From Candidatus Omnitrophota bacterium (GTDB taxonomy: Bacteria; Omnitrophota; Gorgyraeia; Duberdicusellales; 4484-171): 64,000 bases of DNA. Under the pieces are notes generated by a model, which saw nothing but the letters and a program-made list of their open reading frames with translations, was not told where the DNA came from and searched no databases. Positions 1 to 62,202 of the stretch are shown piece after piece; the first letter of the stretch is position 1; every line of letters begins with the position of its first letter. The stretch lies in assembly GCA_003154195.1 (NCBI GenBank), contig PMCS01000031.1:18054-82053 (forward strand), in the 5' to 3' direction. The position numbers and the translations under genes were made by a program.

Positions 1-212
1 GTGTACGATTCCGTCTCCACCGAAGTATTCAAAAACGAAAGCGACGTACTAGAGCTCGAATCGTAATGCTGGCCGGAAATGCTGTCGGAATCCTGCTTTA
101 ATCTTCCCTGATAACCGCGCTTGACATAAACCTGCATTACCAGCAGCGCGCACATGATTATGGCCAAAAATATCGCGTATTCCAACATGCTCTGACTGCC
201 GCGCCATCTCAT
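1..212 (-). CDS. Flp-family pilin paralog, partial (runs off the window start)
   Basis: Manual minus-strand translation from ATG at 212: MRWRGSQSMLEYAIFLAIIMCALLVMQVYVKRGYQGRLKQDSD... with no stop before position 1. It has the same class-III signal/Flp N-terminus (SQSMLEY + hydrophobic helix) as the downstream paralogs. It is absent from the ORF track because it is truncated. Confidence 0.5.
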   Translation of the reverse strand, partial: MRWRGSQSMLEYAIFLAIIMCALLVMQVYVKRGYQGRLKQDSDSISGQHYDSSSSTSLSFLNTSVETESY

Positions 213-370
213 AGAACAACCGCCTTTTTGACAAAATTACCGATATTTTCTTTTAGATGATTATGAAAATTACCCGCCCTCTTTTACCGCCCCGGATCCT
301 TATACAATATTATACCTTTTTTTGGCGCATCGGCAATATCCCTGATCAACCTTTATACCCAAGGGCACCG

Positions 371-883
371 TTAATTAGTAAAAAAATTGTCGTCGGCGAC
401 TACCGTATTGTCTATGCTATCGCCGTGAGCCGTAATGTAGTTCGCGTCCACATCATGCAGGGACGTATAATTCATCTTATTCACCTCTGCCGAAGCGCTG
501 TCAGTCCGGGAACCGGAAGTTACGGTTTGGTTGCCGCCAGTACGCGTGGTTACAGAAAAAGCATTATGAGACATAGTATCTTGTGCGTCCACTGCTACTC
601 CTGCGGCGGAGACGCCGTCCGCGTCGCCACCTATTTTGGCTATTGGACTGTTAGCATTAACGCCGGTACTCTCCGTAATCCCCGATGCTTCCGACACCAC
701 ACGTTGCTTAGTCGTTGTTTCCGTCGCGGAAAATTGTTCGCCCATCCTGCCGGCCGAATCTTTTAACTGCCCCTGGAAACCTCTCTTGACAAATACCTGC
801 ATAACCAGAATTGCCGCTACTACCACAGCGATCAACAAGGCATATTCTAAAATCGATTGCGCTTTTCTTGATTTTACCAACAT
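371..883 (-). CDS. Flp/Fap-family type IVb pilin with extended Ser/Thr-rich C-terminal domain
   Basis: ORF 371..928, trimmed to the internal Met (MLVKSRKAQSILEYALLIAVVVAAIL...). It has the Flp motif (basic leader, Q-S/G, xLEY, hydrophobic helix). An RBS GGAGGTGA lies upstream. Confidence 0.7.
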   Translation of the reverse strand: MLVKSRKAQSILEYALLIAVVVAAILVMQVFVKRGFQGQLKDSAGRMGEQFSATETTTKQRVVSEASGITESTGVNANSPIAKIGGDADGVSAAGVAVDAQDTMSHNAFSVTTRTGGNQTVTSGSRTDSASAEVNKMNYTSLHDVDANYITAHGDSIDNTVVADDNFFTN

Positions 884-1015
884 CCTTCTCACCTCCCTCA
901 ATGAGGCTTCACCGAACGCAAGTCCCACAAGGGACGCCGCGTGAGGTGGTCGCCGAATTTCCCGCCTATGGCGTGATCCCGCTTCCTTAGATATAATTAT
1001 TCAAGGAAGGCGGGA

Positions 1016-1077
1016 GACCCCGACGAGTATCGCAAAAATATCGAAGAGATTTTTGCGATAGTTTACGAGTCGGGGTA
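1016..1077 (-). promoter_or_regulatory. Two-tier conserved hairpin/palindromic motif upstream of a long Flp pilin (copy a)
   Basis: gaCCCCGACgagtATCGCAAAAATatcgaagagATTTTTGCGATagtttacgaGTCGGGGtac; it has inner 11-bp and outer 7-bp inverted repeats. Confidence 0.6.
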
Positions 1078-1108
1078 CGTTTCTCAAACATATTTTCAAT
1101 TAACGACC

Positions 1109-1215
1109 GGCCAGGGCAACGGTGATGATACCCGTATGGGTTAAGGTTATGGCTTTAAAATATTTTTTAAGCCTTAGCCTTTACCCAAACCGGCTTCTTA
1201 ACCCTAGCCTTAACC
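1109..1215. repeat. Palindromic intergenic repeat family A (TTAGGG-like arms), copy 1
   Basis: Left arm GGCCAGGGCAACGGTGATGA..., right arm ...CCAAACCGGCTTCTTAACCCTAGCCTTAACC. The arms are imperfect reverse complements. Confidence 0.65.
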
Positions 1216-1235
1216 ATTTTCACAATACCTGTCTC

Positions 1236-1691
1236 TTATAATTTGTAATCACTCACACCCAGGCTATAATCCGAGCTGGCGTTAAAATCTTCCGCCTCGA
1301 CGTTGTCGGTCTTGGACATTGACTTCACGGTTTGATTGCCGCCGGCTCTTTTCGTTACCGAATACGAACTCTTGCTCGGGTCGCCGGTAATCGTTCCTGC
1401 ATCGGTCACTCTCACCGCAGAGTCGACAAAGTTAGAAAAATTACCGTCCGTCGCTGTTTCTTCCACGATCTGCTGAACATCACCCGGAGTCATGTTGCTC
1501 GTCTGTAAAGTTTTCGTTCCGGTCGCGGAAAATTGCTCGCCCATCCTGCCGGAAGCATCTTTCAACTGCCCCTGAAAACCTCTCTTGACAAATACCTGCA
1601 TAATCAGGATTGCCGCCACCACTACGGCGATCAATAAGGCATATTCTAAGATTGACTGCGCTTTTTTTGATCTTACCAACATCCCTCTCAC
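1236..1691 (-). CDS. Flp-family pilin paralog (long form)
   Basis: MRGMLVRSKKAQSILEYALLIAVVVAAILIMQVFVKRGFQGQLKD... The N-terminal ~50 aa are near-identical to the 371..883 and 1995..2477 paralogs and the C-terminus is variable. Confidence 0.75.
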   Translation of the reverse strand: MRGMLVRSKKAQSILEYALLIAVVVAAILIMQVFVKRGFQGQLKDASGRMGEQFSATGTKTLQTSNMTPGDVQQIVEETATDGNFSNFVDSAVRVTDAGTITGDPSKSSYSVTKRAGGNQTVKSMSKTDNVEAEDFNASSDYSLGVSDYKL

Positions 1692-1757
1692 CCCCTCAAT
1701 GAGGCTTCACCGAACGCAAGTCCCACAAGGGACGCCGCGTGAGGCGGTAGCCGAATT

Positions 1758-1820
1758 GACCCCGACGAGTATCGCAAAAATATCGAAGAGATTTTTGCGA
1801 TAGTTTACGAGTCGGGGTAC
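1758..1820 (-). promoter_or_regulatory. Same hairpin motif (copy b)
   Basis: Near-identical to copy a, located upstream of 1236..1691. Confidence 0.6.
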
Positions 1821-1850
1821 GTTTCTCAAACATATTTTCAATTAACGACC

Positions 1851-1970
1851 GGCCAGGGTAACGGTGATGAGGCCGGTATGAGCTATGGTCAAGGTCATGG
1901 CTTTAAAATATTTTTTAAGCCTTAGCCATCACCTTTACCCAAACTGGCTTCTTAGCCTTAGCCTTAACCC
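1851..1970. repeat. Repeat family A, copy 2
   Basis: Same architecture; it lies between two pilin genes. Confidence 0.65.
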
Positions 1971-1994
1971 AGTATTTACAATACCGCCAACTTA

Positions 1995-2477
1995 CTAATT
2001 CATGTCGAACCTGGAATCAGGGCTATCACCGCCATTAGTGGGTCCGGTAAAATTCATTTTAAAATTTTCCTCGCTGGCCGAATCCGTGGCAGATGACGTA
2101 TTTACGCTTTGTGTGCCGCTGTCCCTGGCGCTTGCGGAATAAGCCCCCTTTTCCAAAACTCCCTCTCCGCTCACATCCCCCATAAGCCTTGGCGTATCTA
2201 TAGCCATGTTGCCGCCCCCCGCACGATCGCTAAAATTGTAATCGGTTGCCGTTTCATCTGTAACATTTTGCCCGGTACTGTTGGTGTGCTGCTTACTCGT
2301 CGAACCGCTGACAGAGAATTGCTCGCCCATCCGGTCGGAAGAGTCTTTTAACTGCCCCTGAAAACCTCTTTTGACAAATACCTGCATGATCAGGATCGCC
2401 GCCACGACCACAGCGATCAATAAAGCATATTCTAAGATTGATTGCGCTTTTTTTGATCTTACCAACATCCCTCTCAC
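1995..2477 (-). CDS. Flp-family pilin paralog (long form)
   Basis: MRGMLVRSKKAQSILEYALLIAVVVAAILIMQVFVKRGFQGQLKD..., with a variable Ser/Thr/Asn-rich C-terminus. Confidence 0.75.
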   Translation of the reverse strand: MRGMLVRSKKAQSILEYALLIAVVVAAILIMQVFVKRGFQGQLKDSSDRMGEQFSVSGSTSKQHTNSTGQNVTDETATDYNFSDRAGGGNMAIDTPRLMGDVSGEGVLEKGAYSASARDSGTQSVNTSSATDSASEENFKMNFTGPTNGGDSPDSRFDMN

Positions 2478-2491
2478 CCCCTCTTAAGAAT

Positions 2492-2611
2492 GGTTAGGGT
2501 AATGGTGATGAGGCCCGTGTGGGTTATGGTTAAGGTAAGGGCTTTAAAGAAATATTTTAAGCCCTAACCATTACCTTTACCCAAACCGGCTTCCTGGCCC
2601 TAGCCTTAACC
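2492..2611. repeat. Repeat family A, copy 3
   Basis: GGTTAGGGTAATGGTGATGAGGCCCGTGTGGGTTATGGTTAAGGTAAGGGC...GCCCTAACCATTACC...CCCTAGCCTTAACCC. Confidence 0.65.
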
Positions 2612-2643
2612 CAGTATTTATATACTGGCCTTACCCGATGAAA

Positions 2644-3084
2644 TCATTGACTCAAATTGCCCACACTGCCTAAAGTCTCTACTTCCACCGATGACGTGAT
2701 TGACGTCTGGTTCTGGATCTTTTCTTCGCCGCCGCCGCGATGCATGACGCTGGTGGAATCACTGCCGGTGATCTGGGTGTTGCGGTATTGCTGGTTGTAG
2801 ATAGAGATGTTGCTCGCAGTATCCCTTAGTCGAGATACCCCCCCTGGGGCCAAAGCATCGATAGCGTCGCCGCTAAAGTCGCTGGAAAGCGCCGACGCAC
2901 CCGCGCCATCCTCTATTCTTGCACCCACCGCAGCATGACCAAGCAAATCCACTGTCTGGGCGCCTTTTTTGCGCATCCCGGCTTTCAGCGCCGCGCCTAA
3001 GACTCCCGTGACCACCGCGATGATCAAGCCTAACGTAATCGCGTATTCCGCTGTTGACTGCGCTTTTCTTAATCTTACAAGCAT
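2644..3084 (-). CDS. Flp-family pilin paralog (long form, conserved C-terminal block)
   Basis: Trimmed to MLVRLRKAQSTAEYAITLGLIIAVVTGVLGAALKAGMRKKGAQTV. The C-terminal ~55 aa (NISIYNQQYRNTQI...VGNL) are shared with the 3844 and 4546 paralogs. Confidence 0.75.
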   Translation of the reverse strand: MLVRLRKAQSTAEYAITLGLIIAVVTGVLGAALKAGMRKKGAQTVDLLGHAAVGARIEDGAGASALSSDFSGDAIDALAPGGVSRLRDTASNISIYNQQYRNTQITGSDSTSVMHRGGGEEKIQNQTSITSSVEVETLGSVGNLSQ

Positions 3085-3187
3085 TATTGTCACCCCCTCA
3101 ATGAACACATTATTTTTTCCCCGCCCCAAGGCGGGACTCCGCTTACACTTCGCAAGCTGAAAGCGCAGAAAAAATAATAGTGTGAAT

Positions 3188-3250
3188 TGATCCCGACGAG
3201 TATCGCAAAAATATCAAAGAGATTTTTGCGATAGTTTACGAGTCGGGATA
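3188..3250 (-). promoter_or_regulatory. Same hairpin motif (copy c)
   Basis: gatCCCGACgagtATCGCAAAAATatcaaagagATTTTTGCGAT...GTCGGGatac, located upstream of 2644..3084. Confidence 0.6.
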
Positions 3251-3310
3251 CATTCAATTACATTTTCAATGAACCGCCACCGACTGAAGTCGATGGTTTT
3301 GGCATAAAAC

Positions 3311-3505
3311 TTACATACCGAAAACCCCCGCGGTCGCGTTATTGGCAGTTTTATTCATCGCCCCGATTACTTTGCTGTAAGTAGAGTTAACCGCCGACTG
3401 GAAACCGCCGGTACGAAACAAAATTACCATGATTACCGCGATAATCGCCGCTAAAAACAAGGTATATTCCAAAACTCCCTGCGCTTTTCTAAACCTTTTC
3501 ATCAT
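3311..3505 (-). CDS. Flp-family pilin, short (64 aa) canonical form
   Basis: MMKRFRKAQGVLEYTLFLAAIIAVIMVILF... This is the classic Flp G-VLEY motif, with the short length typical of Flp. Confidence 0.75.
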   Translation of the reverse strand: MMKRFRKAQGVLEYTLFLAAIIAVIMVILFRTGGFQSAVNSTYSKVIGAMNKTANNATAGVFGM

Positions 3506-3527
3506 TCTCCCCCCCCTTCTTTAAAAT

Positions 3528-3642
3528 GGCCAGGCAACGGTAATGATGCCCGTATGGGCTATGGCTAAGGTCGTGACTGTGAATTCGTATCAACCCTGAC
3601 CATTGCCTTAACCCAAACCGGCTTCCTAGCCCTAACCTTAAC
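3528..3642. repeat. Repeat family A, copy 4
   Basis: Same arms; the central part differs. Confidence 0.6.
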
Positions 3643-3843
3643 CAATCATTATTAAGGTATATTTTCACTCAGCCCCCGCTCCAGGGTAACAACAAACATC
3701 TTATCTTCTGGTTGCTTAAAGTTACAAAAGAATTATGTTTTTATGAAGGTAACCTTAAGCAATTTTCCGTAACTTGGGTAATCTTAAGTAACTTTTACCT
3801 TAAATCCCTGCCGGCTTCTTAACGCCGCCCTTAGCCGATGAAA

Positions 3844-4248
3844 TCATTGAGTCAAGTTGCCCACACTGCCTAAAGTCTCTACTTCCACCGATGACGTGCT
3901 TGATGTCTGGTTCTGGATCTTTTCTTCGCCGCCGCCGCGATGCATGACGCTGGTGGAATCACTGGCGCTGATCTGGGTGTTACGGTACTGCTGGTTGTAG
4001 ATAGAGATGTTGCCGGCGGAGGAGCTTAAAACAACGCCTCCCGAGTCGCCTACCGAGCTTACCGCAATACCAGTACCATCTTCCTTCTCCACCCCGGAAC
4101 CCCCCAACAACTCCACTGTCTGGGCGCCTTTTTTGCGCATCCCGGCTTTCAGGGCCGCGCCTAAGACTCCCGTGACCACCGCGATGATCAAGCCTAAGGT
4201 AATCGCGTATTCCGCTGTTGACTGCGCTTTTCTTAACCTTACCAACAT
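3844..4248 (-). CDS. Flp-family pilin paralog (long form)
   Basis: Trimmed to MLVRLRKAQSTAEY.... The N- and C-terminal blocks are near-identical at nucleotide level to 2644..3084 and 4546..4959, with a divergent middle. Confidence 0.75.
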   Translation of the reverse strand: MLVRLRKAQSTAEYAITLGLIIAVVTGVLGAALKAGMRKKGAQTVELLGGSGVEKEDGTGIAVSSVGDSGGVVLSSSAGNISIYNQQYRNTQISASDSTSVMHRGGGEEKIQNQTSSTSSVEVETLGSVGNLTQ

Positions 4249-4320
4249 CCTTCTCACCCCCTCAATGAGACTTGGCCGAGCGCGCATGCTGCGCATGTGC
4301 AGCGAGGCCGTAGTCGAATT

Positions 4321-4383
4321 GACTCCGGCGAATGTCCTAAAAATATCGAAGAGATTTTCAGGACGGCTTATGAGCCGGAGTAC
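4321..4383 (-). promoter_or_regulatory. Same hairpin motif with compensatory substitutions (copy d)
   Basis: gaCTCCGGCgaatGTCCTAAAAATatcgaagagATTTTCAGGACggcttatgaGCCGGAGtac. Both stems are changed but base pairing is preserved. Confidence 0.6.
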
Positions 4384-4392
4384 ATTAAAAAT

Positions 4393-4540
4393 GGCCAGGG
4401 TAATGGTAATGAGGCCCGTATGGGTTATGGTTAAGGCTGTAAATTCGTATCAGCCCTGACCCTTGCCTTAGCCTAAACCGGCTTCTTAACCCTAACCTTA
4501 ACCTTTTTTCAATACGGGCTTCCTAGCCCTAACCTTAACC
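4393..4540. repeat. Repeat family A, copy 5 (with duplicated right arm)
   Basis: The right arm ...CCTAACCTTAACC occurs twice in tandem. Confidence 0.6.
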
Positions 4541-4545
4541 AATCA

Positions 4546-4959
4546 TCACTCGGTCAAGCAGCCCACACTGCCTAAAGTCTCTACTTCCACCGATGACGTG
4601 CTTGATGTCTGGTTCTGGATCTTTTCTTCGCCGCCGCCGCGATGCATGACGCTGGTGGAATCACTGCCGGTGATCTGGGTGTTACGGTACTGCTGGTTGT
4701 AGATAGAGATGTTGCCGCCGCCGGCTAAATGAATGCCGTTGGTGTTAGTGTCGAGGCCCTCAGCGAGCGCTCGATCGCCGCTATCATCGCCGGTAGCGGC
4801 ATCTTTAAGCAAATCCACTGTCTGGGCGCCTTTTTTGCGCATCCCGGCTTTCAGGGCCGCGCCTAAGACTCCCGTGACCACTGCGATGATCAAGCCTAAA
4901 GTGATCGCGTATTCCGCTGTTGACTGTGCTTTTCTTAACCTTACCAACATCCTTCTCAC
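4546..4959 (-). CDS. Flp-family pilin paralog (long form)
   Basis: MRRMLVRLRKAQSTAEYAITLGLIIAVVTGVLGAALKAGMRKKGAQTVDLL..., with a conserved C-terminal block. Confidence 0.75.
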   Translation of the reverse strand: MRRMLVRLRKAQSTAEYAITLGLIIAVVTGVLGAALKAGMRKKGAQTVDLLKDAATGDDSGDRALAEGLDTNTNGIHLAGGGNISIYNQQYRNTQITGSDSTSVMHRGGGEEKIQNQTSSTSSVEVETLGSVGCLTE

Positions 4960-5020
4960 CCCCTCAATGAGCGCATTATTTTTGAAGCGTTACTATGCTT
5001 CAAAAATAATAGCGCGAATT

Positions 5021-5083
5021 GACCCCGGCGAATGTTCAAAAATTATCGAAGAGAATTTTTGAACGGCTTATGAGCCGGGGTAC
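5021..5083 (-). promoter_or_regulatory. Same hairpin motif with compensatory substitutions (copy e)
   Basis: gaCCCCGGCgaatGTTCAAAAATtatcgaagagaATTTTTGAACggcttatgaGCCGGGGtac. Confidence 0.6.
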
Positions 5084-5113
5084 GTTTCTCAAACATATTC
5101 TCAACTAACGACC

Positions 5114-5322
5114 GGCCCGGGCAATGGTAATGCTCTCCTTCGCTCTTCGAGCTTCGGAGAAGTCTCGCCGAAACCTAGCCATCAAATATGGCTAGGTTTC
5201 GCCTATAAGGCGAACTTCAGCGAAGGCGGAATGCCGGTATGGGTTATGGTTAAGGCTGTAAATTCGTATCAGCCCTGACCCTCGCCTTAGCCTAAACCGG
5301 CTTCTTAACCCTAACCTTAACC
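5114..5322. repeat. Repeat family A, copy 6 with nested GC-rich insertion
   Basis: A inserted module ctccttcgctcttcgagcttcggagaagtctcgccgaa plus a perfect hairpin acctagccatcaaatatggctaggt sits inside the A element. Confidence 0.6.
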
Positions 5323-5363
5323 GAACATTATCCCAATGAACCCCCGTTCATCTGCTGCAAAAC

Positions 5364-5558
5364 TTATTGCGAGAAAACTTCCTTAGTCATCTTATCGGTA
5401 GTATTCCCCATCGCCCCTATTACCTTGCCGTAAGTGGCGTCAAGCGATGTCTGCAAGCCGCCCCTACGGAATAAAATAACCATGGTTACCGCGATAATCG
5501 CCGCTAAAAATAAGGTATATTCCAAAACTCCCTGCGCTTTTCTTAATCTTACCAGCAT
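5364..5558 (-). CDS. Flp-family pilin, short (64 aa)
   Basis: MLVRLRKAQGVLEYTLFLAAIIAVTMVILF..., a paralog of 3311..3505. Confidence 0.75.
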   Translation of the reverse strand: MLVRLRKAQGVLEYTLFLAAIIAVTMVILFRRGGLQTSLDATYGKVIGAMGNTTDKMTKEVFSQ

Positions 5559-5569
5559 CCTTCTCCCCT

Positions 5570-5719
5570 TTATTTCTTATACTCCAACTGCTCCTGGATC
5601 TGTTTTAACTTAGCATTCATCGACCGGGTGATGTATTTATGGGCTATCATCATTGCCGCCATAATCACCACAATCAACATCGCGTAATCCAGCATGCCTT
5701 GCGCTTTTGTTTTTTTCAT
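5570..5719 (-). CDS. Flp-like pilin, divergent short form
   Basis: ORF 5570..5803 trimmed to MKKTKAQGMLDYAMLIVVIMAAMMIAHKY.... Its start codon overlaps the stop of the upstream gene (ATGA). Confidence 0.55.
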   Translation of the reverse strand: MKKTKAQGMLDYAMLIVVIMAAMMIAHKYITRSMNAKLKQIQEQLEYKK

Positions 5720-5943
5720 AATTTTTTGTTCGGATCGGCGTTGTATTTGGGCACATCCATGGTATTGGTAATAAAATATTTTGACGTTCGGAAATGATTC
5801 CATAATTTTTGCTTGATTAAGTCGTTAAACTTACTGCCGGCGGCGACAAACATTATCACCATCAAAGCAGTGAGAATAATATATTCAAGCATGCTCTGGC
5901 TGCGCCGCAATACCGGTAATCCTGAATCAATTATTTTGGCCAT
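5716..5943 (-). CDS. Flp-like pilin, divergent form
   Basis: ORF 5716..6057 trimmed to MAKIIDSGLPVLRRSQSMLEYIILTALMVIMFVAAG.... It has the SQSMLEY motif and a hydrophobic helix. Confidence 0.5.
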   Translation of the reverse strand: MAKIIDSGLPVLRRSQSMLEYIILTALMVIMFVAAGSKFNDLIKQKLWNHFRTSKYFITNTMDVPKYNADPNKKL

Positions 5944-6310
5944 AGTCGCCGTAGTAAACCCCGTTAGAGGACTTTGTTCCTTCACCCCGATAGGAAATTC
6001 TTTTCTAACGAGGCAAGCGGCGCCGGCAAAAAAACAAAACTCTATACCTCCAGACATGGATATAGCTACCCCTTCTCTCCGCTTGCCGGAGCCTGCCCCT
6101 TAGCTGCCTCCCCTACCATCATAAATATACCACAATCACTACGTTGAATTCAAGCTAATAAATGCGAAATTGAAATGATTTTGAAACCGTTTCCAATAAT
6201 ACTATTTTAACCCGGAAAATACCTTCCGCCAGCATTTTATTTATACGCGTTTGCCTTGAGTTATGTTACAAACGCCGTGCTTACCCCCCAAAATACGGGC
6301 ATTTTTCCGG

Positions 6311-7753
6311 TTAAAGAAGAAAAATTCTCTTATTATCCAAATAAAATCCTTCTTTATTAAAAGCATCTTTGAGGGTGCGGGAAATATCTTTTACGATTAT
6401 CTTATAAAAGTTCTTGCCGACGGCCAGGTAACCGGCCGCGTCGGGCGACGATGCCGCCGTCGGTACCGGCGGCGCCGGCATTTTGCGGTTGAACGCGGCG
6501 GCTAAAATATTTTTAATCTCGATAAAATCCTCCGCTTTAGCGAGGGGAATTTTTTTCGCCGGCATTGGGTAATCGGCGATCCCGGGCGCCGGGCTGCCTT
6601 TAAAAAAATTTTCAAATATTTCCAGGTCATCCGGGAATTTTTTTTCCGGAAACGGCCAGAAATATAAATAGTTGCCCAGTAAAGGCAGAAAATCTTTCCG
6701 GTCCGTCATAAAACACCATACGGGAAGGGCCTTTTTCTTGCGAAAAACCGGAATATTATTGACGATAATACCCCGGCTGTCTTTATCCCGGGAGAACCTG
6801 GCTAAAGCGGAAGCGTAAAAAAAATCCTGCCCCGCCGGAGAAGGTATTTTTTTAATTCTTGTTTGCCGGCTTAAATAAGCGGCACCCTGGGATAAAAATC
6901 TGGGATGATAACCGACAAAAAAAGAAGTTTTGACGGGCGCGGGAAAAGATATTTTTTCCCACGCTTCGCCGGCAGGGCTGAGGAATTCTATTTCTTTTAC
7001 GCCCTTCGTCAAGCCGTTTAAAAAATCCAAAGCTAAGGGCGAAAGATAACCGAAACTTTTCGTATAATTTACCAGAACGGCCTTTGCCGAAAGCATCCGG
7101 GTGATGATTTCTTTCGCCCGCGTTAACGGTGCGCTAAAATTTCCCATCGGGCAATCGCCCCGCCAAAACGTCGTCATCGCGGCGTCGCAATAAGAAACCG
7201 CGCCGCCCTCAAAATAAAATTTTATCGTCCTTGTTTCTTTGCGGGTTTCTTTAAATCCCGCTAAATCTAATTGGAGGTTTGCCGCCGGCAGGGTTTTTAA
7301 AAATTCGTTTATTTTGCCCAGGGACAGATGGCCAAGCCCGGCTGCCCGTAAGAATCCCCGGGCCGCGATATTTTCTTTCAGGCCCAGAGCGGGAACCCGG
7401 AAAACCAGTAAACCGGTGATCTTGCGCAGGAGGTCTTCCTCGAACTGAGGGAAAAACGGCTTGAGGGAAGAAACTGCGTAATCAATAAGGCCGAACTTTG
7501 AATCGAAGCCGCGCAGGAGGAGGGGAAAACAATCATAGTTTTCCCCTTTTTTATAAAGGGTAATCGATTTTTTGCGCCCCTTCCTTTCTTTTACGCCGCG
7601 AGAAGAAAAAATATTCTGGATTGAACTTTTGGAGAGCTTGATCTTGTGTTTTTCGTCTAAAAACCGGGACAACGCCCTTACCCCCAGATAAGGGTTTTTC
7701 TTTCTTGCGCTGATGATTAAACTACGCACCCGCGGATTTATCTTGGCCCGCAC
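6311..7753 (-). CDS. Hypothetical 480-aa protein with N-terminal helix-turn-helix-like segment
   Basis: The N-terminus NPYLGVRALSRFLDEKHKIKLSKSSIQNIF looks HTH-like and the rest is unrecognised. It sits between the tad ATPase and the pilin array. Domain fold and function are not assignable from sequence alone. Confidence 0.3.
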   Translation of the reverse strand: MRAKINPRVRSLIISARKKNPYLGVRALSRFLDEKHKIKLSKSSIQNIFSSRGVKERKGRKKSITLYKKGENYDCFPLLLRGFDSKFGLIDYAVSSLKPFFPQFEEDLLRKITGLLVFRVPALGLKENIAARGFLRAAGLGHLSLGKINEFLKTLPAANLQLDLAGFKETRKETRTIKFYFEGGAVSYCDAAMTTFWRGDCPMGNFSAPLTRAKEIITRMLSAKAVLVNYTKSFGYLSPLALDFLNGLTKGVKEIEFLSPAGEAWEKISFPAPVKTSFFVGYHPRFLSQGAAYLSRQTRIKKIPSPAGQDFFYASALARFSRDKDSRGIIVNNIPVFRKKKALPVWCFMTDRKDFLPLLGNYLYFWPFPEKKFPDDLEIFENFFKGSPAPGIADYPMPAKKIPLAKAEDFIEIKNILAAAFNRKMPAPPVPTAASSPDAAGYLAVGKNFYKIIVKDISRTLKDAFNKEGFYLDNKRIFLL

Positions 7754-7808
7754 AGTTCCTCCCGCTTAACCCAAATAATCATTGTATTTATTGAATTTAT
7801 TCGTGTTA

Positions 7809-7869
7809 TTTGTGCAATTCGTTGTTAAAAATATTTTAACAACGCATATCGCAATTTACAGAAATTTTT
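7809..7869. promoter_or_regulatory. Motif family F (near-palindromic GTTGTTAAAA-N-TTTTAACAAC) upstream of 6311..7753
   Basis: atttGTGCAATTCGTTGTTAAAAATATTTTAACAACGCATATCGCAATTTACAgaaatttt. Confidence 0.45.
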
Positions 7870-7968
7870 ACACTATATTATACCAAAAACTTGCGCGAGT
7901 GGTTGAAATATTAACAGTGGTGTTTTCCGGGGATAGGGAGGCCTGATTTTTCCGGTCCGCCGGAAAAA

Positions 7969-10137
7969 TTAGACCTTGAAGATGTCTTCCGAAAGCAGGA
8001 TGCCCTGCATTTTCATGTCCGGGAAAAAGCTGGGGATATAACCGGTGGGCTTAAACTCGCCGATGATGCTGCCGTCTTTATCCACGCCGGATTGGACAAA
8101 AGAAAAAATGTCTTTTAAGCCGACGTGCATCTCGTCCACCATGCCGGTGATCTCGGTAATCGCCAAAACCCTTCTTGTGCCGTCGCTTAAGCGCGCCGTA
8201 TGGACGATAAGGTCGAGCGCCGAAGCAATCATCTCGCGGATGGCGCGGATCGGCAATTCCACGCCGCTCATTAAAATCATGGAGTCAAGCCTGATTAACA
8301 CGTCGTGGGTGGAGTTGGCGTGCAGCGTAGACATACTGCCGTCATGGCCGGTATTCATCGCCTGCAACATATCCAGCGCCTCGATGCTGCGGCATTCGCC
8401 GACGATAATCCGGTCGGGCCTCATACGCAGGGTATTGCGAAAAAGCTCCCTGATCGTAACGGCGCCTTTGCCCTCGATATTCGGCGGCTTGGATTCCAGG
8501 CGTATCCAATGATCCTGGTCGAGTTTCAATTCCGCCGAATCCTCGATCGTGATGATACGTTCGCGGTCGGGAATGAACAAAGAAAGAATATTAAGAAAAG
8601 TCGTTTTACCGCTTCCCGTTCCCCCGGAAACCATAATGTTTTTTCTCCCCACCACGCAGGCTTTTAAAAAATCGGCCATGCTGTTACTCAGCGACTTAAG
8701 GCCGACCAGTTCTTTGATGGAAAAACGTTCTTTGCGAAACTTTCGGATGGTAAGCGAAGGCCCGGTTAAAGCCAGAGGCGGGATAATCGCGTTAACGCGG
8801 GAACCGTCCGGCAAGCGCGCGTCCACATAAGGCGACGACTCGTCGATCCTCCTGCCTAACGGCGCCAGAATCCGCTCGATGACGATCTTTACCTGTTCGT
8901 CGGTGGTAAAATGCTTATCGGTAAGAGTAATTTTTCCGGCACGCTCGATATACACCTGGTCTTTATTATTGACCATGACTTCGGTAATGGTCGCGTCCCT
9001 CAATAAATCTTCCAGCGGCCCCAGGCCCAGAGCTTCGTCGATGATTTCTTTGATGATTTGTCTTCGCATTTCCAACGAGGCGGCGATGCCGTCGATTTCC
9101 CTGGTCAGAATATTGCTTAAAATTTTTTCCGCCTGTTCTTTCAGCTTATGCATTTGCTCCACGTCGGTAGTAAGCGTATCGAGCGGCAGCCGCTTGAGGT
9201 TCATTTCCTCGATCAGCTTAAGATGCGCCCGTTTTTTAAGTTTTATCACGTTATCGGTTTCTTTATCGATTTTAACCTTCTCATTCTTCTGCTCGGACAT
9301 GCCCAGATCAGTCCAGAAATCTACCTTGGGTTTTTGCGCCATCTCATCGCCCCTGACAACCATCTCGGCCAGGCTCTTTTGAAACACAAAAATATCTTCC
9401 CGGGTGGCTAAAAGAACAGCCAAGGCGTCGATTGCGGAAGTAATTTTGCTGTCGGGGGTATCGATGATAATAGGGATCCCCATATTCAAGGCGAGGCCGG
9501 CGGCTTTTCCGTCGGAAGGGACCTGGGAAATAATATCGATCGGCAAAAGCGCTTTTATTTCCGAAGAACTTACGCCGCCTTTACTCTCAAAACGGTTTAA
9601 AATACCTTTTACCATGGAAAGAGGAAAAGTCATTATTTCCAAAGCTTCGAGGGTTAATTCGGTCTGATACAGGGAAAGGACATCGGGGTTTATCACCAGC
9701 AAAATAAGGTTTGATTTATCAAAAATATTTACGGTAATATCGCTGATATTTTTTCCGCCGTCGATAATAATAAAATCGTATTCCAGGGCTTTAAAAAAAC
9801 CCAGGGCTTCGGCTACGTTGGCGGCGGTAAGCGAACCGGCCGAACGCAAGCTTAAAATCGACGGCAAAAAATCAAGAAAAGGATTTATCGCGATTAAAAA
9901 GTTTCCCTTTAACAGTTCCTTGTTGTCTTTAATCGCGCTCCAGTCATGGATTATATCTACCAGCGAAGCCTTGGGCTTAAGATTGCACATCTTGGACATA
10001 TCAAAAGGCGCGCCAAAATCCATCTCCAAAAGCAGGACTTTTTTATTTTTCCGGGAAAGGCTTATGGCCGTATTAAGCGCCAGCGTAGTTTTACCTACGC
10101 CGCCTTTTGTGCTGAAAAAAGTTATCGTCTTAGTCAT
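7969..10137 (-). CDS. Fused ParA/MinD-like (TadZ/CpaE-like) ATPase domain + CpaF/TadA secretion ATPase
   Basis: N-terminus MTKTITFFSTKGGVGKTTLALNTA has the deviant Walker A of ParA/MinD/CpaE. The C-terminal ~450 aa have the VirB11/CpaF signature (MVSGGTGSGKTTFLN, IEDSAELKL, ECRSIEALDMLQAMNTGHDGSMSTLHANS). Confidence 0.8.
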   Translation of the reverse strand: MTKTITFFSTKGGVGKTTLALNTAISLSRKNKKVLLLEMDFGAPFDMSKMCNLKPKASLVDIIHDWSAIKDNKELLKGNFLIAINPFLDFLPSILSLRSAGSLTAANVAEALGFFKALEYDFIIIDGGKNISDITVNIFDKSNLILLVINPDVLSLYQTELTLEALEIMTFPLSMVKGILNRFESKGGVSSSEIKALLPIDIISQVPSDGKAAGLALNMGIPIIIDTPDSKITSAIDALAVLLATREDIFVFQKSLAEMVVRGDEMAQKPKVDFWTDLGMSEQKNEKVKIDKETDNVIKLKKRAHLKLIEEMNLKRLPLDTLTTDVEQMHKLKEQAEKILSNILTREIDGIAASLEMRRQIIKEIIDEALGLGPLEDLLRDATITEVMVNNKDQVYIERAGKITLTDKHFTTDEQVKIVIERILAPLGRRIDESSPYVDARLPDGSRVNAIIPPLALTGPSLTIRKFRKERFSIKELVGLKSLSNSMADFLKACVVGRKNIMVSGGTGSGKTTFLNILSLFIPDRERIITIEDSAELKLDQDHWIRLESKPPNIEGKGAVTIRELFRNTLRMRPDRIIVGECRSIEALDMLQAMNTGHDGSMSTLHANSTHDVLIRLDSMILMSGVELPIRAIREMIASALDLIVHTARLSDGTRRVLAITEITGMVDEMHVGLKDIFSFVQSGVDKDGSIIGEFKPTGYIPSFFPDMKMQGILLSEDIFKV

Positions 10138-10227
10138 GGTGAATTTTTATGGAAGCTGCCGCCCCCTAAACCTTGGACAAATTATCTGGCAGGCAAAAAG
10201 GGGCGGGCGATACGAAAACCGGCTTTT

Positions 10228-11817
10228 TTATTTCCTTTCGCGGTAAACAATGGGAATATCGATTCTTAATTCTTTAAGTTCAACCTGCGCCGGGAAAGGA
10301 GGATAAACAAGCTTCTGCACCAGCCTGAGCGCGGCCTCGTCAAATACCTTATACCCCGATGTCTGCGCCACATAGGCGTCTTTTAATTGGCCGACATCGT
10401 CAAGGATGAGTTTGACCAAAACGTTTCCCTGCCAGCCGGTATTTACCAGTTCGAGGGGATAACTGATATTATCGGTAATCTTTTTTTGAATCGCTAAAGC
10501 GTAATCCTGAAGCTCAAAAGGAATGCTTCTCATTGTTTCCATAGCGTCGGACTCTTTCTCTTCTTTTTTAATTTCTTTAGCCGGGGCGGCTTGTTTTTCT
10601 CCGGCTTTTTCCATACCCGCCGAATAAACAATCCTGGGCGTTAGGGTGATATAGAACTCCGCGTCGTTGTTAAAGGGCATGCTTTTATGCCGGAAGAATG
10701 CGCCTAAAATAGGCGTATCCGACAGCCAGGGAAACTTGGCGATAGCTTCCTCTGTTTTCTTTCTGATTAAACCGCCGATGGCGATGGTTTCGCCGTCGGC
10801 CATATAAATTTGCGTGGAAACACTGCGGTTAAGCGTCGGGTAGGCCTTGGCCGTAGTCGAAGAGCCGCTGCTGATCGATTCCGCCGCCTCGAGGTCGGTA
10901 ACCGATATCTTCAACATCACGTTTATTTTGCCCTTTTTATCCACCACCGGGCTGATTGAAAGATTTATGCCGTAAGGTTTATATTCAACGGTCGTACCGG
11001 CGCCGCCGCCAATTGAAGTAATATTGGTATTAAAAATCGGTTTTTCTCCGCCTACCGTGATCTCCGCGGTTTTACCGCTTTGACAGGTCACCCGGGGCCG
11101 GGAAAGGATTCTCGCCTTACCTTCGGTTTCTAAAAGATCGAGCGAGTAACTAAAGCTGTCGCCGGAACGGCCATATTGTCCCAACTTATAAAATTCTGCG
11201 AAATGGCCCAGGGAATTCCTATCCGTGGGCAAAGTTTCACCGATACCGGTGTTGCTCGGGAAATTAAAACCGAGGCTGCGGGTAGCATCGTGGCTCAGCT
11301 CCAGCACTTCCACGGCGATCTCGATCAAAACATCTTCATCCGCCTCCACGATAAAATCCCCGATTTTAGCCTTATAAGCCGCTAAAATAGCCATTAATTT
11401 TTCTTTTTCCTGTTTCTTAAGTTCGCCGAAAAGAAAAACTTTATCCTCGCTGTCCATCGCCTTTACGGTAATCGCGTCCATGCCCAATTCCTTCAAAACT
11501 TTCTCGATTTTATTTTTAAGCGCGGTCATTTCTTCCGCGTAAACTTTTACGTCAAAATTATGTTCACCGAAAGCGTCCCACCATTGAAGCTTTGCCTCCC
11601 CCTTGGCTTTCGCGACCAGCACCAGTTCTTTCTCGCTGGCGGAAACTACGTCCAGGATTTCCGGTCTGCTTACCGAAATCCTTTGGGGATTGTTGACCGG
11701 TATCACCTGCGTATCGCCCACATAAAAAATAAGAGCGGAAAGATCGTAGCGATCTGCGGCAGGCAGCGATAAAGGCGACATCAAACAGGCAGTAAGAAAA
11801 ATAATTATCGTTTTCAT
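10228..11817 (-). CDS. Tad secretin (CpaC/RcpA-like) with C-terminal TonB_C-like domain
   Basis: Signal peptide, then the secretin core (GETIAIGGLIRKK...FPWLSDTPILGAFFRHKS...FYITLTPRIV). This is followed by ~110 aa matching the TonB C-terminal fold pattern (ISYPLELVNTGWQGNVLVKLILDDVGQL...SGYKVFDEAALRLVQKLVYPPFP). Confidence 0.75.
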   Translation of the reverse strand: MKTIIIFLTACLMSPLSLPAADRYDLSALIFYVGDTQVIPVNNPQRISVSRPEILDVVSASEKELVLVAKAKGEAKLQWWDAFGEHNFDVKVYAEEMTALKNKIEKVLKELGMDAITVKAMDSEDKVFLFGELKKQEKEKLMAILAAYKAKIGDFIVEADEDVLIEIAVEVLELSHDATRSLGFNFPSNTGIGETLPTDRNSLGHFAEFYKLGQYGRSGDSFSYSLDLLETEGKARILSRPRVTCQSGKTAEITVGGEKPIFNTNITSIGGGAGTTVEYKPYGINLSISPVVDKKGKINVMLKISVTDLEAAESISSGSSTTAKAYPTLNRSVSTQIYMADGETIAIGGLIRKKTEEAIAKFPWLSDTPILGAFFRHKSMPFNNDAEFYITLTPRIVYSAGMEKAGEKQAAPAKEIKKEEKESDAMETMRSIPFELQDYALAIQKKITDNISYPLELVNTGWQGNVLVKLILDDVGQLKDAYVAQTSGYKVFDEAALRLVQKLVYPPFPAQVELKELRIDIPIVYRERK

Positions 11818-26729: not shown

Positions 26730-27032
26730 ACCATCACCAAAAGCAATAAGCGAAACGGATCAATCCGCTTCGCTTATTGCTTTTTAATATTCTTAATAAT
26801 GATATCAAGCTTGGCTAAAACAAGCACGGAAACAAACAAAAACCAGATAAAACTGATTACATTAATAAGGATTATCGCCGCTACCCAATTACCTTCCATA
26901 ATTTACCTCCTTTAATGAGCAGATGATTTATGAAATTTTACCAAATTTCATAAATCATAGGCCTTGATATCTAAAATGTCAAGGCCGCCTGCGAATTAAA
27001 CCCCGCCCTTTTGGCTAATCGGTGAAGCCTCA

Positions 27033-30239: not shown

Positions 30240-30425
30240 AAAAGATTTACCACAAAGACACTAAAATTATAAATACCAACTGTATTTTAAATCACTCATT
30301 GGCCATTTGGCATTTTAAATTTTTAAAAAATGATAAATGTAAAATGCTCAATGGTAATTTTAAAATACACTTACTGGTCTTTCTTTGTGCCCTTTATGCC
30401 TTGGTGGTAAGTTTTTAGGTTTTTA
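30240..30425. mobile_element. MITE-like element family B (TIR TTACCACCAAGACAC)
   Basis: Left TTACCACAAAGACAC, right GCCTTGGTGGTAAGTTTTTAGG; an AT-rich ~150-bp interior; non-coding. Confidence 0.55.
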
Positions 30426-34308: not shown

Positions 34309-34457
34309 AATCGATAATTTATTTTATCCTGTAGGGGCGAGGCATGCCTCGCCCTCTAACTTATGCTGGTTACGACATTTATCTTTTATTTTAGAGGGCC
34401 GGACATGCCCGGCACCTACAAGGTTATAGAAATTATTATTCCATATATGGATAAATA

Positions 34458-35066: not shown

Positions 35067-35124
35067 AGTATCTCCAAGAAAAAGTAGAGAGTAGAGAGGG
35101 CAGAGTAGAGAGATACTTTAAAAT

Positions 35125-35241
35125 GGTTAGGGTAAGGGTAAGGATGCCAGTATAGGTTAGGGTTAAGGTACGGGCTAAAAATTGGTTTGAACCCTAACCA
35201 TTACCATAACCCAAACCGGCTTCCTAACCCTAGCCTTAGCC
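35125..35241. repeat. Repeat family A, copy 8
   Basis: GGTTAGGGTAAGGGTAAGG...GGTTAGGGTTAAGG...CCCTAACCATTACCATAACCCAAACCGGCTTCCTAACCCTAGCCTTAGCC. Confidence 0.65.
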
Positions 35242-53890: not shown

Positions 53891-54018
53891 AATTTATATT
53901 TTGGAGAAAACAGATTTCATTTTAAATTGTTCATTTTTCATTTACCATTTTAAATTTTTACAAAATGGCAAATGTCCAATGCAAAATGATAATTTTAAAA
54001 TTAATTTATATTAGGCCT

Positions 54019-59815: not shown

Positions 59816-61069
59816 TTAGTTGTTTATCCTGATCTGTCTCTCCAGATTTTCCCTGTTCGCCGTTAGATCTTCCACTTTCGACTCGAGAGAATTAACCGAG
59901 GATAATACTTTTTTCCATCTATCTTTATCGATTTTTAACACTTCAAGGTCCCTGGGGGGTTTACTTTTCACCGCTCTTTCTTTTTCATCCCCGGCAGCCG
60001 GAACATTTTTGGCGGGAGAATAAACCTCCGACCGGTCGGCCATTCGCTGCATCACCGAAGGGGTGATGATCGTCGGCGAAACAAAAATGAGAAGTTCCGT
60101 TTTTTCTTTTGTTTTTTTATTGTTCTTAAACATCCAGCCTAACCCGGGGATATCGCCTAAAACCGGGACTTTAGTCGACCCGTCGGTAGTGGTTTCTTTC
60201 ATCAGGCCGCCGATAATAAAAGTCTGGCCGTTGCCGACAATAACTTTCGTATTTGCCGTCCGGCTGTCAATTATAGGGACAGTATAAGGAATCGCTTTTC
60301 CATTCGGATCGGTAACCGTAAGAGTAAAATCAGCGGTCTTTTCGCTCACATCCGGTTTAATATCCATAGCAATCCGGCCGTCGTCGGTGATGGTCGGCGT
60401 GACATTAAGCACGATGCCGACTTGCTCAAAATGAATGGTCCATGTCACCGTAACTGCCCCATATTCGGAAACCGCTACGCTGGGTTCGGCCCAGGGAAGT
60501 TTTTGTATAACTTTGATTTCCGCCACGCGGTTGTTCACCGTGCTGATGCTGGGCGCGGAAAGAATGTTGGTTTTAAAATTAGTGGCCAAAGCTTTAAGCA
60601 CCACATTTATATTTTCATCGAATATATTTATCGTAAATGGTTCTTGCGCCAATGATCCTCCCGGAGGATAACTTACCGCCTGGAAGGGGATATCCTGGCT
60701 TAACCCCTGGTTTAACGCCGAACCGACGTTAAACTGGCCAATGCGCCAGCCGTTATGGTCGGCAAATGCCGACCAGTTGATACCTAAAGAATTCTCTTCC
60801 GTAAGCTTGACCTCTACGACCCTGGCTTCGATAAGAACCTGCCGGGGCATCGTATCAACCATGGCTAAGTAATTCTCGACCTTTTTAAGATTATCGGCGT
60901 GGTCCATCACCATAACCGAGTTGGGCTCGACGCCGAACAGGATCTTGCCGTCGCTGGAAAGAAGAGACCTTATATCCGAAACCGACTGGGCAAAAATTAA
61001 AGAAACGCCGCCGATGATGATGTAAAAAGATAAGATAAATCTCGTTAACAGGGGAAATAGTTTTTTCAT
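59816..61069 (-). CDS. Minimal secretin (PilQ/GspD family): one N-domain + secretin core
   Basis: Own signal peptide, one secretin_N-like domain (ILFGVEPNSVMVMDHADNLKKVENYL) and the secretin core (IIGGLMKE...VPVLGDIPGLGWMFKN...LLIFVSPTII). Confidence 0.8.
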   Translation of the reverse strand: MKKLFPLLTRFILSFYIIIGGVSLIFAQSVSDIRSLLSSDGKILFGVEPNSVMVMDHADNLKKVENYLAMVDTMPRQVLIEARVVEVKLTEENSLGINWSAFADHNGWRIGQFNVGSALNQGLSQDIPFQAVSYPPGGSLAQEPFTINIFDENINVVLKALATNFKTNILSAPSISTVNNRVAEIKVIQKLPWAEPSVAVSEYGAVTVTWTIHFEQVGIVLNVTPTITDDGRIAMDIKPDVSEKTADFTLTVTDPNGKAIPYTVPIIDSRTANTKVIVGNGQTFIIGGLMKETTTDGSTKVPVLGDIPGLGWMFKNNKKTKEKTELLIFVSPTIITPSVMQRMADRSEVYSPAKNVPAAGDEKERAVKSKPPRDLEVLKIDKDRWKKVLSSVNSLESKVEDLTANRENLERQIRINN

Positions 61070-61124
61070 ATTTTGCTCCTTATTTTTTTACTGCGTAAAA
61101 AAATAATATCATCCGCTGCGTCCC

Positions 61125-61185
61125 GATGCGCCTAAATATCGCGAAAATCTCTTTCAGACATTTTCGCGAAGCTTTCGGGACTCCG
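61125..61185 (-). promoter_or_regulatory. Related hairpin motif between the two secretin ORFs (copy f)
   Basis: GTCCCGAtgcgcctaaatATCGCGAAAATctctttcagacATTTTCGCGAAgctTTCGGGAC. It has the same inner-stem consensus and an outer 7-bp stem, and is followed by gggactccgcttacgctccgc, which is also present near copy c. Confidence 0.5.
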
Positions 61186-61314: not shown

Positions 61315-62202
61315 TTATTTAGCCACGCCCACAACATCTTTAGCGTTTAAAAATTTCAATTTAAAAACTTTGGCGTCGATGCTTTTATCGGCCATCGTTA
61401 AATAACTTTCTATTTTTTCTAAATTAACCGGATAATCAATAATCATAATCGAATTAGGCTGGTCGCCCAAAAAAGACTTGCCTTCTTTAGATAAAAGGCC
61501 GGCCAAGGCTGTTGCCTGGGGCGTGCCGCCGGTTACAAACGTCTTCGCCTCGACATACTGCAAAGGGAATACCTTGGTCACCAAGTTCGGTTTTACCAGC
61601 AACACGCTTCCTTTTTTTTCGATAATCAGGCCCTGCATATCCGCGATACGTTCTAAAGCTTCCTCCAGGGAAATATTGGTAAAACTGGCGCTTAATTTAC
61701 CGGAAACATTCTTATCCACTAATATATTAAAATCATAATCGTGAGCCAGCACCCGAAAAAGATCATTTAAATCTACCCCGCGTAATTCAATAGAATAAAG
61801 GGGCTGAGCCGACTCCAATCTTTTAATCTCTAAAAGCGGCAAGCTCTCCATGATCTCCTTCTTGGCTGCCTGAAGCTCGCTTACTTCCTTAGGCCCCTTC
61901 TTAACGTTCTCTTCTCCCGTGGTTGCTTCCGCCGCGGCGCCGGCAGGAGCCTCGGCTTTATTTTCATTCGCCTTTTCTTTATCCGCGGGAACGGAATCCT
62001 TTTGCGCCGCATTGTCGGCAGGGGGTGGCGTTGGCGGCGCCTGCTTTGCTTCTTTTGCCGGTTCGCTGGACGCCGGCGCGGCAGGCGCCGCGTCTTTTTT
62101 GTCCTTCCAATCCCCCCACGGTTTAAACTCTTGCTCGCATAACCCTGTTACGGCGAAACCGAACAGGAACCCCGCGGTTAATAATAAATTTATTGGTTTC
62201 AT
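61315..62202 (-). CDS. Secreted N0/N1 secretin-N-domain protein (separate ORF upstream of the secretin)
   Basis: Signal peptide, an Ala/Pro/Lys-rich linker, an N0-like domain and an N1 domain (SFLGDQPNSIMIIDYPVNLEKIESYL). The N1 domain is homologous to the N-domain of the downstream secretin. Confidence 0.6.
   Translation of the reverse strand: MKPINLLLTAGFLFGFAVTGLCEQEFKPWGDWKDKKDAAPAAPASSEPAKEAKQAPPTPPPADNAAQKDSVPADKEKANENKAEAPAGAAAEATTGEENVKKGPKEVSELQAAKKEIMESLPLLEIKRLESAQPLYSIELRGVDLNDLFRVLAHDYDFNILVDKNVSGKLSASFTNISLEEALERIADMQGLIIEKKGSVLLVKPNLVTKVFPLQYVEAKTFVTGGTPQATALAGLLSKEGKSFLGDQPNSIMIIDYPVNLEKIESYLTMADKSIDAKVFKLKFLNAKDVVGVAK

Follow-up and report, generated by a model that had tools for sequence, protein, structure and literature searches.

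An intergenic double-hairpin module separates pilin genes, and many unrelated genes, in Omnitrophota-type genomes

Gene regulation is, to our knowledge, essentially unknown in Omnitrophota, a group of uncultivated bacteria that are often ultra-small and may be predatory. We analysed a 64-kb stretch of a Candidatus Omnitrophota genome (contig PMCS01000031.1 of assembly GCA_003154195.1, positions 18,054 to 82,053; hereafter the window), in which a tandem array of Flp-type prepilin genes carries copies of a ~60-nt multi-tier hairpin, designated H1. Six copies are present in the window, five of them on the minus strand in the array. The reading that we favour, at a probability of roughly 60%, is that a modular intergenic repeat of Omnitrophota-type genomes has H1 as its conserved core, and that this repeat is dispersed at the DNA level and co-transcribed as an intercistronic double hairpin. 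A structured, multi-copy module common to many genomes provides a concrete handle on operon expression or on the tolerance of mobile DNA in Omnitrophota.

A previous interpretation by a model that was given only the DNA letters (the sequence-only reading) had described a ~62-nt hairpin ~70-140 nt upstream of five pilin start codons, and this was found to within a few bases, at 72-134 nt. On the minus strand, copy a (1017-1076, 45.4 bits) ends 134 nt from the start codon (883) of the pilin gene 371..883; copy b (1759-1818, 52.0 bits), which is identical to a, lies 77 nt from the start (1682) of the pilin gene 1236..1682; copy c (3190-3249, 52.7 bits) 106 nt from that (3084) of 2644..3084; copy d (4322-4381, 45.3 bits) 74 nt from that (4248) of 3844..4248; and copy e (5022-5081, 42.2 bits) 72 nt from that (4950) of 4546..4950. 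Copy f (61120-61181, 27.8 bits) is on the plus strand between the open reading frames (ORFs) 59816..61069 and 61315..62202 and belongs to a different subtype (GCGCCUAAAUAU...AAGC). A full covariance-model scan of the whole 64-kb window, with filters off, gave no H1 copies besides these six. The loop motif, with two mismatches allowed, was matched five times as compared to 0.10 matches expected by chance, and each window copy folded 4-7 standard deviations better than its shuffles.

H1 is built of three tiers: an outer stem of 8 bp (ACCCCGAC/GUCGGGGU), a middle tier of 2 bp, (G/A)U:A(C/U), which covaries, and an inner stem of 11-12 bp with the loop CUCUUCGAU. The two-stem design first proposed therefore stands, with an outer stem of 8 rather than 7 bp and an extra middle tier. 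The compensatory changes reported earlier for both stems of copies d and e are real: these stems differ from those of a and keep their complementarity, with one G-U pair on the minus strand of d (A-C on the plus strand). Such changes also occur in c, which differs from a by one compensated outer pair and one loop change, and in f, where an inner A-U pair is replaced by G-C.

Further copies were collected by scanning one genome per species with a 19-mer of the loop, which gave at least 118 loci and, among the loci that it matched, at least ~40 full multi-tier hairpins. The hosts are metagenome-assembled genomes labelled mostly Candidatus Omnitrophota, with a few Planctomycetia/Planctomycetales (Third Party Annotation assemblies) or Ratteibacteria and one unclassified bin. 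A covariance model, R1, built from 21 type-1 copies, gave at least 74 matches in 48 such loci (65 distinct sense copies), including extra copies that the 19-mer had not seeded. In the type-1 set, which comprised 21 copies from other genomes, 96.9% of cells were paired, 11 of 20 pairs had changed on both sides, and 68 cells carried two-sided changes, a value reached in 0 of 500 shuffles; pairing fell to 30-55% when the 3' partner was slid by 1-3 columns. The window subtype, with 12 copies from the window and 7 other contigs, behaved likewise: 94.4% of cells were paired, 13 of 21 pairs had changed on both sides, 48 cells carried two-sided changes (0 of 500 shuffles), sliding reduced pairing to 25-49%, and the middle pair showed a G-C to A-U switch without exception. 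These results strongly support selection or maintenance of the H1 hairpin for complementarity. The covariation from which the sequence-only reading had argued for selection on structure is thus borne out in both alignments, and it remains overwhelming with more copies included.

H1 is usually followed, after a linker of 1-3 nt, by a second and more variable hairpin, H2, which extends right up to the ribosome-binding site of the following gene and has the base AAUUCGNN/NNCUCAUU or AAUUUGCC/GGCAAAUU. In all five array copies, (C)AAUUCG follows H1 and leads into H2, whose 3' arm ends in CUCAUU directly before GAGGGGGUGA...AUG; the 2-4 bases 3' of AAUUCG pair with those 5' of CUCAUU and covary (GGC/GCC, ACAC/GUGU, GAC/GUC and GCGC/GCGC). 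On the minus strand, the H2 of copy a (900..959) has the base stem AAUUCGGC/GCCUCAUU and ends at the Shine-Dalgarno (SD) sequence, with an extra hairpin (978-1014) inserted before H1; the H2 of copy b (1698..1757) runs AAUUCGGC...GCCUCAUU and then GAGGGGGUGAGAGGGAUG; and the H2 hairpins of copies c (3100..3188, AAUUCACAC...GUGUUCAUU), d (4264..4320, AAUUCGAC...GUCUCAUU) and e (4966..5020, AAUUCGCGC...GCGCUCAUU) are each followed by the SD sequence. The H2 terminus is the SD sequence in every sense copy, and the H1-H2 unit occupies the whole spacer from the stop codon to the next SD sequence. In other genomes, many H2 stems, at loci L074, L085, L088, L101, L102, L056, L023, L019 and L215, have AUAACUUACG...CGUAAGUUAU in common and enclose a tip that varies. 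On the sense strand, the conserved AAUUC/UCAUU base of H2 would produce tandem U-C mismatches, and on the antisense strand tandem G-A pairs.

Full-length H1 copies were found in at least 26 Omnitrophota-type assemblies. The genes downstream of sense copies include those for ribosomal proteins L14, L19, L27 and S9, acyl carrier protein (ACP), an aminoacyl-tRNA synthetase and bactofilin, as well as hcp, argC, dapA and metK; placements confirmed with Pfam are L13-[module]-S9, TrmD-[module]-L19, FabG-[module]-ACP and S17-[module]-L14, and also one at L27. Immediately 3' of tRNA genes there are about ten copies, each in the inverted orientation and with its H2 side directly adjoining the end of the tRNA. 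According to crude gene calls, the flanking genes were in the same/same orientation for 26 copies, opposite/opposite for 19 and mixed for 11; the H1-H2 unit is thus mostly located between co-oriented genes, and is itself in either orientation. In ~14 of 26 sense copies the upstream stop codon is 3-10 nt before the outer stem, which suggests that in these compact copies the element is intercistronic rather than a promoter-proximal leader. Loci from other phyla (515 kb) and viral loci (129 kb) contained no full elements, and gave only partial 19-mer matches scoring at most 27.7 bits with R1. A viral origin was rejected, as 0 of 12 IMG/VR loci carrying the loop 19-mer hold an element.

Comparison of orthologous junctions showed how the module behaves. 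Homologues of ribosomal protein L19 (75-93% identity) led to seven syntenic loci with DNA, all with the gene order tgt-trmD-rplS-rnhB...fhs-folD-metF, and these (L215-L221) were compared together with L100. The trmD-rplS junction is filled in L100 (130 nt) and in L215 (127 nt, a degenerate H1 with a canonical H2), and is empty in six loci, where the spacers are 22, 15, 5, 4, -1 and -8 nt. At the junction from a pyridine-nucleotide oxidoreductase gene to a carbon monoxide dehydrogenase (CODH) gene, L217 is filled and the genes overlap or are adjacent in L216, L218 and L220; at the junction from an aminoacyl-tRNA synthetase gene to scpA, L220 is filled and L215, L216, L219 and L221 are empty. 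The filled sites carry the module between a stop codon and an SD sequence that the empty sites also have. The H1-H2 module is thus a discrete insertion of ~100-170 bp, present or absent at orthologous sites, and in this respect, at three junctions, it resembles a miniature inverted-repeat transposable element (MITE). In 134 kb that had not been selected for the element, R1 found two copies only, those at the oxidoreductase-CODH and synthetase-scpA junctions. A specific insertion target (TAAC or TTAAG) was considered and rejected, since 56 upstream flanks held no consistent motif.

The modules are also mosaic. Copies a and b are identical, yet their pilin genes are 62% identical; copy c is 95% identical to a and b, and its gene is 80% identical to those of d and e and 54% identical to those of a and b. 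This decoupling of H1 similarity from gene similarity implies that H1 was exchanged or inserted independently of the gene duplications. In copy f, the whole of H1 is inverted inside an otherwise sense leader: between it and the SD/ATG of 59816..61069 lies an A/U-rich, H2-like hairpin on the minus strand (61080..61107, UUAUUUUUUUAC/GUAAAAAAAUAA), which is related to the H2 stems of copies c and e. An H2-only leader without H1 (26907..27010, minus strand, UUAAUUCGCAG...CUGCUCAUUAAAGGAGG and then ATG) precedes a small unrelated gene; a fragment of the a/b H2 arm, in inverted orientation, stands before this leader, and the two together span 26907-27033. Even within the window, therefore, modules are mosaic and also occur away from pilus genes. 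Elsewhere, a copy at L005 (6185-6261, minus strand) has the stems, the bulge and H2 in the sense orientation, but its loop is the reverse complement (AUAUCAAAGAGAU), a flip of the hairpin loop. Back-to-back H1 pairs on opposite strands occur at L085 (2386-2534), L094 (649-800), L023 (368-520), L043 (2456-2596) and L077 (1158-1298), and in the first three of these an inverted window-subtype copy stands beside a sense type-1 copy.

These observations bear on the proposal that H1 is a pilus-specific cis element, either a 5'-untranslated RNA switch or an operator, which coordinates the Flp/Tad and type IVa systems. All six window copies adjoin pilus genes, as this proposal would predict; the H1-H2 leaders of a second tandem Flp array, at L174, are laid out as CAAUUCGAC...GUCUCAUUGAGGAGGUGA, as in the window; and pilT, a type IV pilin gene and a gspF/pilC-like gene are among the genes downstream of sense copies elsewhere. 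However, most family members flank unrelated housekeeping genes and tRNAs, and in a metagenome scan for relatives of the long Flp genes (80 loci, 260 kb) H1 was present in 4 loci and absent from the other 76. Moreover, copies a-e belong to one tandemly duplicated array, and are not five independent placements, and their similarity is decoupled from that of the adjacent genes. The claim that every long Flp paralogue is preceded by the hairpin fails at 1995..2468, which lacks H1, and the claim that short Flp genes lack it fails at L174, where two short Flp genes have the window subtype before them and two long ones have the f-like subtype, in the sense orientation. A copy is indeed present between the secretin ORFs, as the sequence-only reading had noted, but its plus-strand homology places it in the opposite orientation to the secretin gene downstream of it (59816..61069, minus strand). 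One signal linking the Tad and type IVa systems is difficult to reconcile with this inversion, with orthologous junctions that are variably empty and with copies that are those of a generic repeat. The suggested bipartite palindromic operator for a dimeric factor was rejected as well, because 6 of 11 inner-stem pairs take 3-4 base-pair types and stay complementary, whereas an operator would conserve its half-sites. Thus, the pilus-specific explanation is largely refuted by the distribution of the family, a ground for refutation that the sequence-only reading had itself named, and we regard it as very improbable. For the pilin array, no shared pilus-specific signal is indicated; its tandem genes are separated by generic repeat modules.

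If H1-H2 is a dispersed repeat, insertion and/or gene conversion would have spread or exchanged the module at the DNA level, and its perfect palindrome with the conserved loop and bulge would probably be what is recognised, in the manner of REP/RAYT or other hairpin-dependent elements. Thereafter, the module would be co-transcribed with its neighbours as a tandem double hairpin, which would cap the 3' end of the upstream cistron and set a stable helix immediately before the ribosome-binding site of the downstream one. In the pilin array, it would uncouple, and probably stabilise, individual pilin messages, a generic effect rather than a pilus-specific switch.

Several observations weigh against this reading. 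The two ends of the H1-H2 unit do not form inverted repeats of each other, and no terminal inverted repeats were found; no consistent target-site duplication was found, a possible TTAAG duplication being present at one filled site only; and no associated transposase or RAYT gene was found within the window or the 8-20-kb genome pieces. The conservation of the H1 loop is partly an ascertainment effect of the 19-mer used in the collection scan, whose pattern fixed the loop and the five A-U pairs beside it, and the loop is more variable among the copies that the model alone recovered. At tRNA-Leu/Cys (L028, L090) and tRNA-Ala (L099, L050), the element is kept across genomes with different, still complementary stems, and such retention at the same junctions points to long-term selection rather than pure selfish turnover. 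In addition, orientation is biased, in that most copies before protein genes are sense and every copy after a tRNA is antisense, and H2 is always in register with the SD sequence; both features would be more directly explained by an RNA-level host function.

Such a function could be host-encoded RNA punctuation, in which H1 and H2 are functional intercistronic structures that set cistron stability or translation and aid the maturation of tRNA operons. It could operate through RNase III cleavage or a dedicated loop/bulge-binding protein, with pilins, ribosomal proteins and ACP as typical clients. We consider this a tentative possibility. In addition to the tRNA junctions, the orientation bias and the register of H2, it would account for the position of the element within conserved operons, on the 5' side of the more strongly expressed gene (trmD>rplS, fabG>acpP, rplM>rpsI), and the near-coaxial helix of ~20 bp with a conserved asymmetric internal loop is like the RNase III sites of phage T7. 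However, most orthologous junctions in close relatives are empty, with genes that abut or overlap, which indicates that the element is dispensable at any given site, and in inverted copies the conserved loop would appear as its complement. It is rather unlikely, in our estimate, that the H1-H2 unit is a lineage-specific mRNA/tRNA punctuation and not selfish DNA, with a dedicated protein that recognises the loop and bulge of H1 and cuts or caps polycistronic transcripts. If this were true, compact-genome Omnitrophota-type bacteria would rely on the modules, in place of internal promoters and terminators, to set the stoichiometry of cistrons such as those for pilins, ribosomal proteins and ACP.

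Wobble pairs provide a way to distinguish selection on one RNA strand from a DNA-level palindrome. Pairing was almost purely Watson-Crick (97% in the inner stem), and overall there were 20 G-U and 20 A-C pairs, an absence of strand asymmetry that speaks against RNA punctuation. When copies were split by transcribed strand, those transcribed in the antisense orientation had 3 G-U and 3 A-C pairs, and those transcribed in the sense orientation had 15 G-U vs. 7 A-C, a weak and non-significant hint of RNA-level tolerance that runs counter to dispersal at the DNA level and in favour of punctuation. Thus, RNA-level selection on one strand was not shown by the wobble counts, overall or split by transcribed strand, and the readings that fit are a DNA-level palindrome, an element that folds in either orientation, or double-strand recognition of the RNase III type. 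The GGTTAAGG hairpin of the window, used as an RNA-type control for strand asymmetry, showed none. Whole-hairpin folding energy favoured the antisense strand in 52 of 65 copies, but this preference is due to the conserved bulge and loop and is not independent evidence.

In many copies 3-10 nt separate the upstream stop codon from H1, whose G+C-rich base leads into a partly U-rich stretch (UUAAUU, GAUUUUUGCC), and for this reason an intrinsic terminator or attenuator of the upstream gene was also considered. A scan of 300-6300 gave one terminator-like site, inside a pilin coding region, and none at H1 or H2; the U-rich stretch is interrupted and takes part, as the 5' arm, in the pairing of H2; copies are located within obligatory operons (rplM-rpsI, trmD-rplS); the sequence after inverted copies is A-rich; and a conserved loop and bulge would not be expected of a terminator. 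This explanation therefore appears quite improbable. Promoter elements were likewise rejected: TGATAAC/TATAAC, 5-8 nt upstream of H1, could be read as a -10 box, which would put H1 as a stem-loop at the 5' end of the transcript, but according to the gene calls it is the stop codon of the upstream gene, often as tandem stops, and the only sigma-70 candidate at the window copies, a weak TTGAGA-16-TAAACT, overlaps H1 in a and b, is absent in d and is unconvincing.

Database and literature comparisons did not identify the element. Rfam 15 gave no matches at the gathering threshold in the whole window, and an E-value scan of 800-5400 gave only sub-threshold chance matches to miRNA-precursor hairpins; the literature searched, including a survey of Omnitrophota (PMC10066038), makes no mention of such an element. 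A gene-specific cis-regulatory RNA was rejected on the basis of the downstream genes, which span ribosomal proteins, ACP, aminoacyl-tRNA synthetases, biosynthesis and pilus functions, and of the ~10 inverted copies after tRNAs. An integron attC site (RYYYAAC/GTTRRRY) was rejected by inspection, since GCCUAAAC in the 5' bulge is unpaired with the GUUAAUU after the stem and the neighbours are housekeeping operons and tRNAs.

Among known repeats, REP/BIME elements (PU; enterobacteria and pseudomonads; associated with RAYT) are likewise high-copy extragenic imperfect palindromes, found in either orientation and mosaic with short modules, and the opposite-strand H1 pairs resemble the alternating orientation of REP units in BIMEs. 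REP elements are also co-transcribed, keep complementarity by compensatory changes and are known to stabilise upstream mRNA segments. In contrast, H1 is longer, has three tiers, a conserved 9-nt loop and a 5' bulge, lacks the 5' GTAG, lies mostly ahead of the ribosome-binding site rather than at operon 3' ends, and is conserved in sequence across many genomes of a phylum, as opposed to those of one species or genus. Assignment to REP/RAYT was rejected, as that class is defined by a palindrome of 20-40 nt with a GTAG-type tetranucleotide, and the 24 nt upstream of 56 copies were only A/T-rich. Correia/nemis elements of Neisseria and ERIC/IRU elements of enterobacteria share with H1-H2 the form of 100-150-bp intergenic insertions, present or absent at orthologous sites, transcribed with their neighbours and forming long hairpins; these hairpins are substrates of RNase III (nemis) or RNase E (ERIC) and alter the stability of flanking messages, and ERIC is likewise conserved across genera. 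However, they are single long palindromes with terminal inverted repeats and, in Correia, a TA duplication, whereas H1-H2 consists of two separate adjacent hairpins, with neither terminal repeats that are evident nor a duplication that is consistent.

BOX elements of Streptococcus pneumoniae (boxA-boxB-boxC) are similarly modular and intergenic, occur in variable combinations and numbers with a stable predicted structure, and affect the expression of neighbouring genes; they have no sequence relationship to H1-H2, are limited to a species group, and do not share its register with the SD sequence. The intercistronic RNase III sites of T7 and the papBA stem-loops also place helices of ~20 bp with an asymmetric internal loop between cistrons, where processing leaves a protective 3' hairpin, and pilin messages are classically made abundant in this way. 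This likeness is one of mechanism only, as T7 and papBA sites are unique and H1-H2 is a dispersed repeat. Thus, H1-H2 is most likely a new modular family of intergenic palindromic repeats, whose nearest kinds are REP/BIME, ERIC, Correia/nemis and BOX, and it has the defining sequence features of none of them. Annotators could mistake H1 copies for gene-specific regulators, and the covariance model together with the comparison of filled and empty sites provides a way to recognise them.

The minus strand carries every gene in the first 12,900 nt of the window (1-12900). The Flp-type prepilins of the tandem array have N-termini (e.g., MLVRLRKAQSTAEYAI) that match the G/A-XXXX-EY processing motif, and the array is followed by a 480-aa ORF and then by a Tad set (CpaF-like ATPase, secretin and RcpC/CpaB). 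The 480-aa ORF (6311..7753, minus strand), which had been suggested as a candidate regulator, showed a weak N-terminal match to a transposase-type helix-turn-helix (HTH_32, IS481), and no recognisable domain beyond this weak similarity. Window proteins were 27-68% identical to proteins in H1-bearing loci. Over the pilin-array region (1-8000), the window is 100% identical to contigs of several peat metagenomes and of GCA_003154645.1 (PMEA01000124.1), which are L222-L225; the organism is thus a recurrent population in which the array is invariant across these samples, and strain variation is uninformative for this reason.

A second repeat family, an imperfect long hairpin of ~110 nt that starts GGUUAAGGYUARGG..GAAGCCGGUUU, is present on the minus strand at 1092-1215, 1846-1969, 2488-2611, 3520-3643, 4395-4540, 5199-5322 and 35120-35241. 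It lies directly 3' of most pilin stop codons, with one copy between two unrelated genes (at 35 kb), and it forms the entire spacer up to the SD sequence for the pilin gene 1995..2468 and the short Flp gene 3311..3505; none was present among the 118 collected loci compared. At 5125-5235, upstream of H1 e, a copy of the GGTTAAGG hairpin contains an extra insert of ~110 nt, which itself forms hairpins (GCGAAACCTAGCCAT...ATGGCTAGGTTTCGC) and gave a marginal match of 18.7 bits to the H1 model. Two long A/T-rich intergenic palindromes (30278-30372 and 53916-54004) with common motifs (ATTTTAAAT...CATTTGGCATTTTAAATTTT) probably represent another intergenic repeat family, and intergenic inverted repeats are numerous elsewhere in the window, e.g., at 34314-34436. 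In the split secretin on the minus strand (59816..61069 and 61315..62202), the upstream ORF has STN and Secretin_N domains and the downstream ORF a Secretin domain. Because the downstream ORF starts with its own signal-peptide-like segment, the split may be a genuine two-gene arrangement, and not a gene broken by insertion of a repeat.

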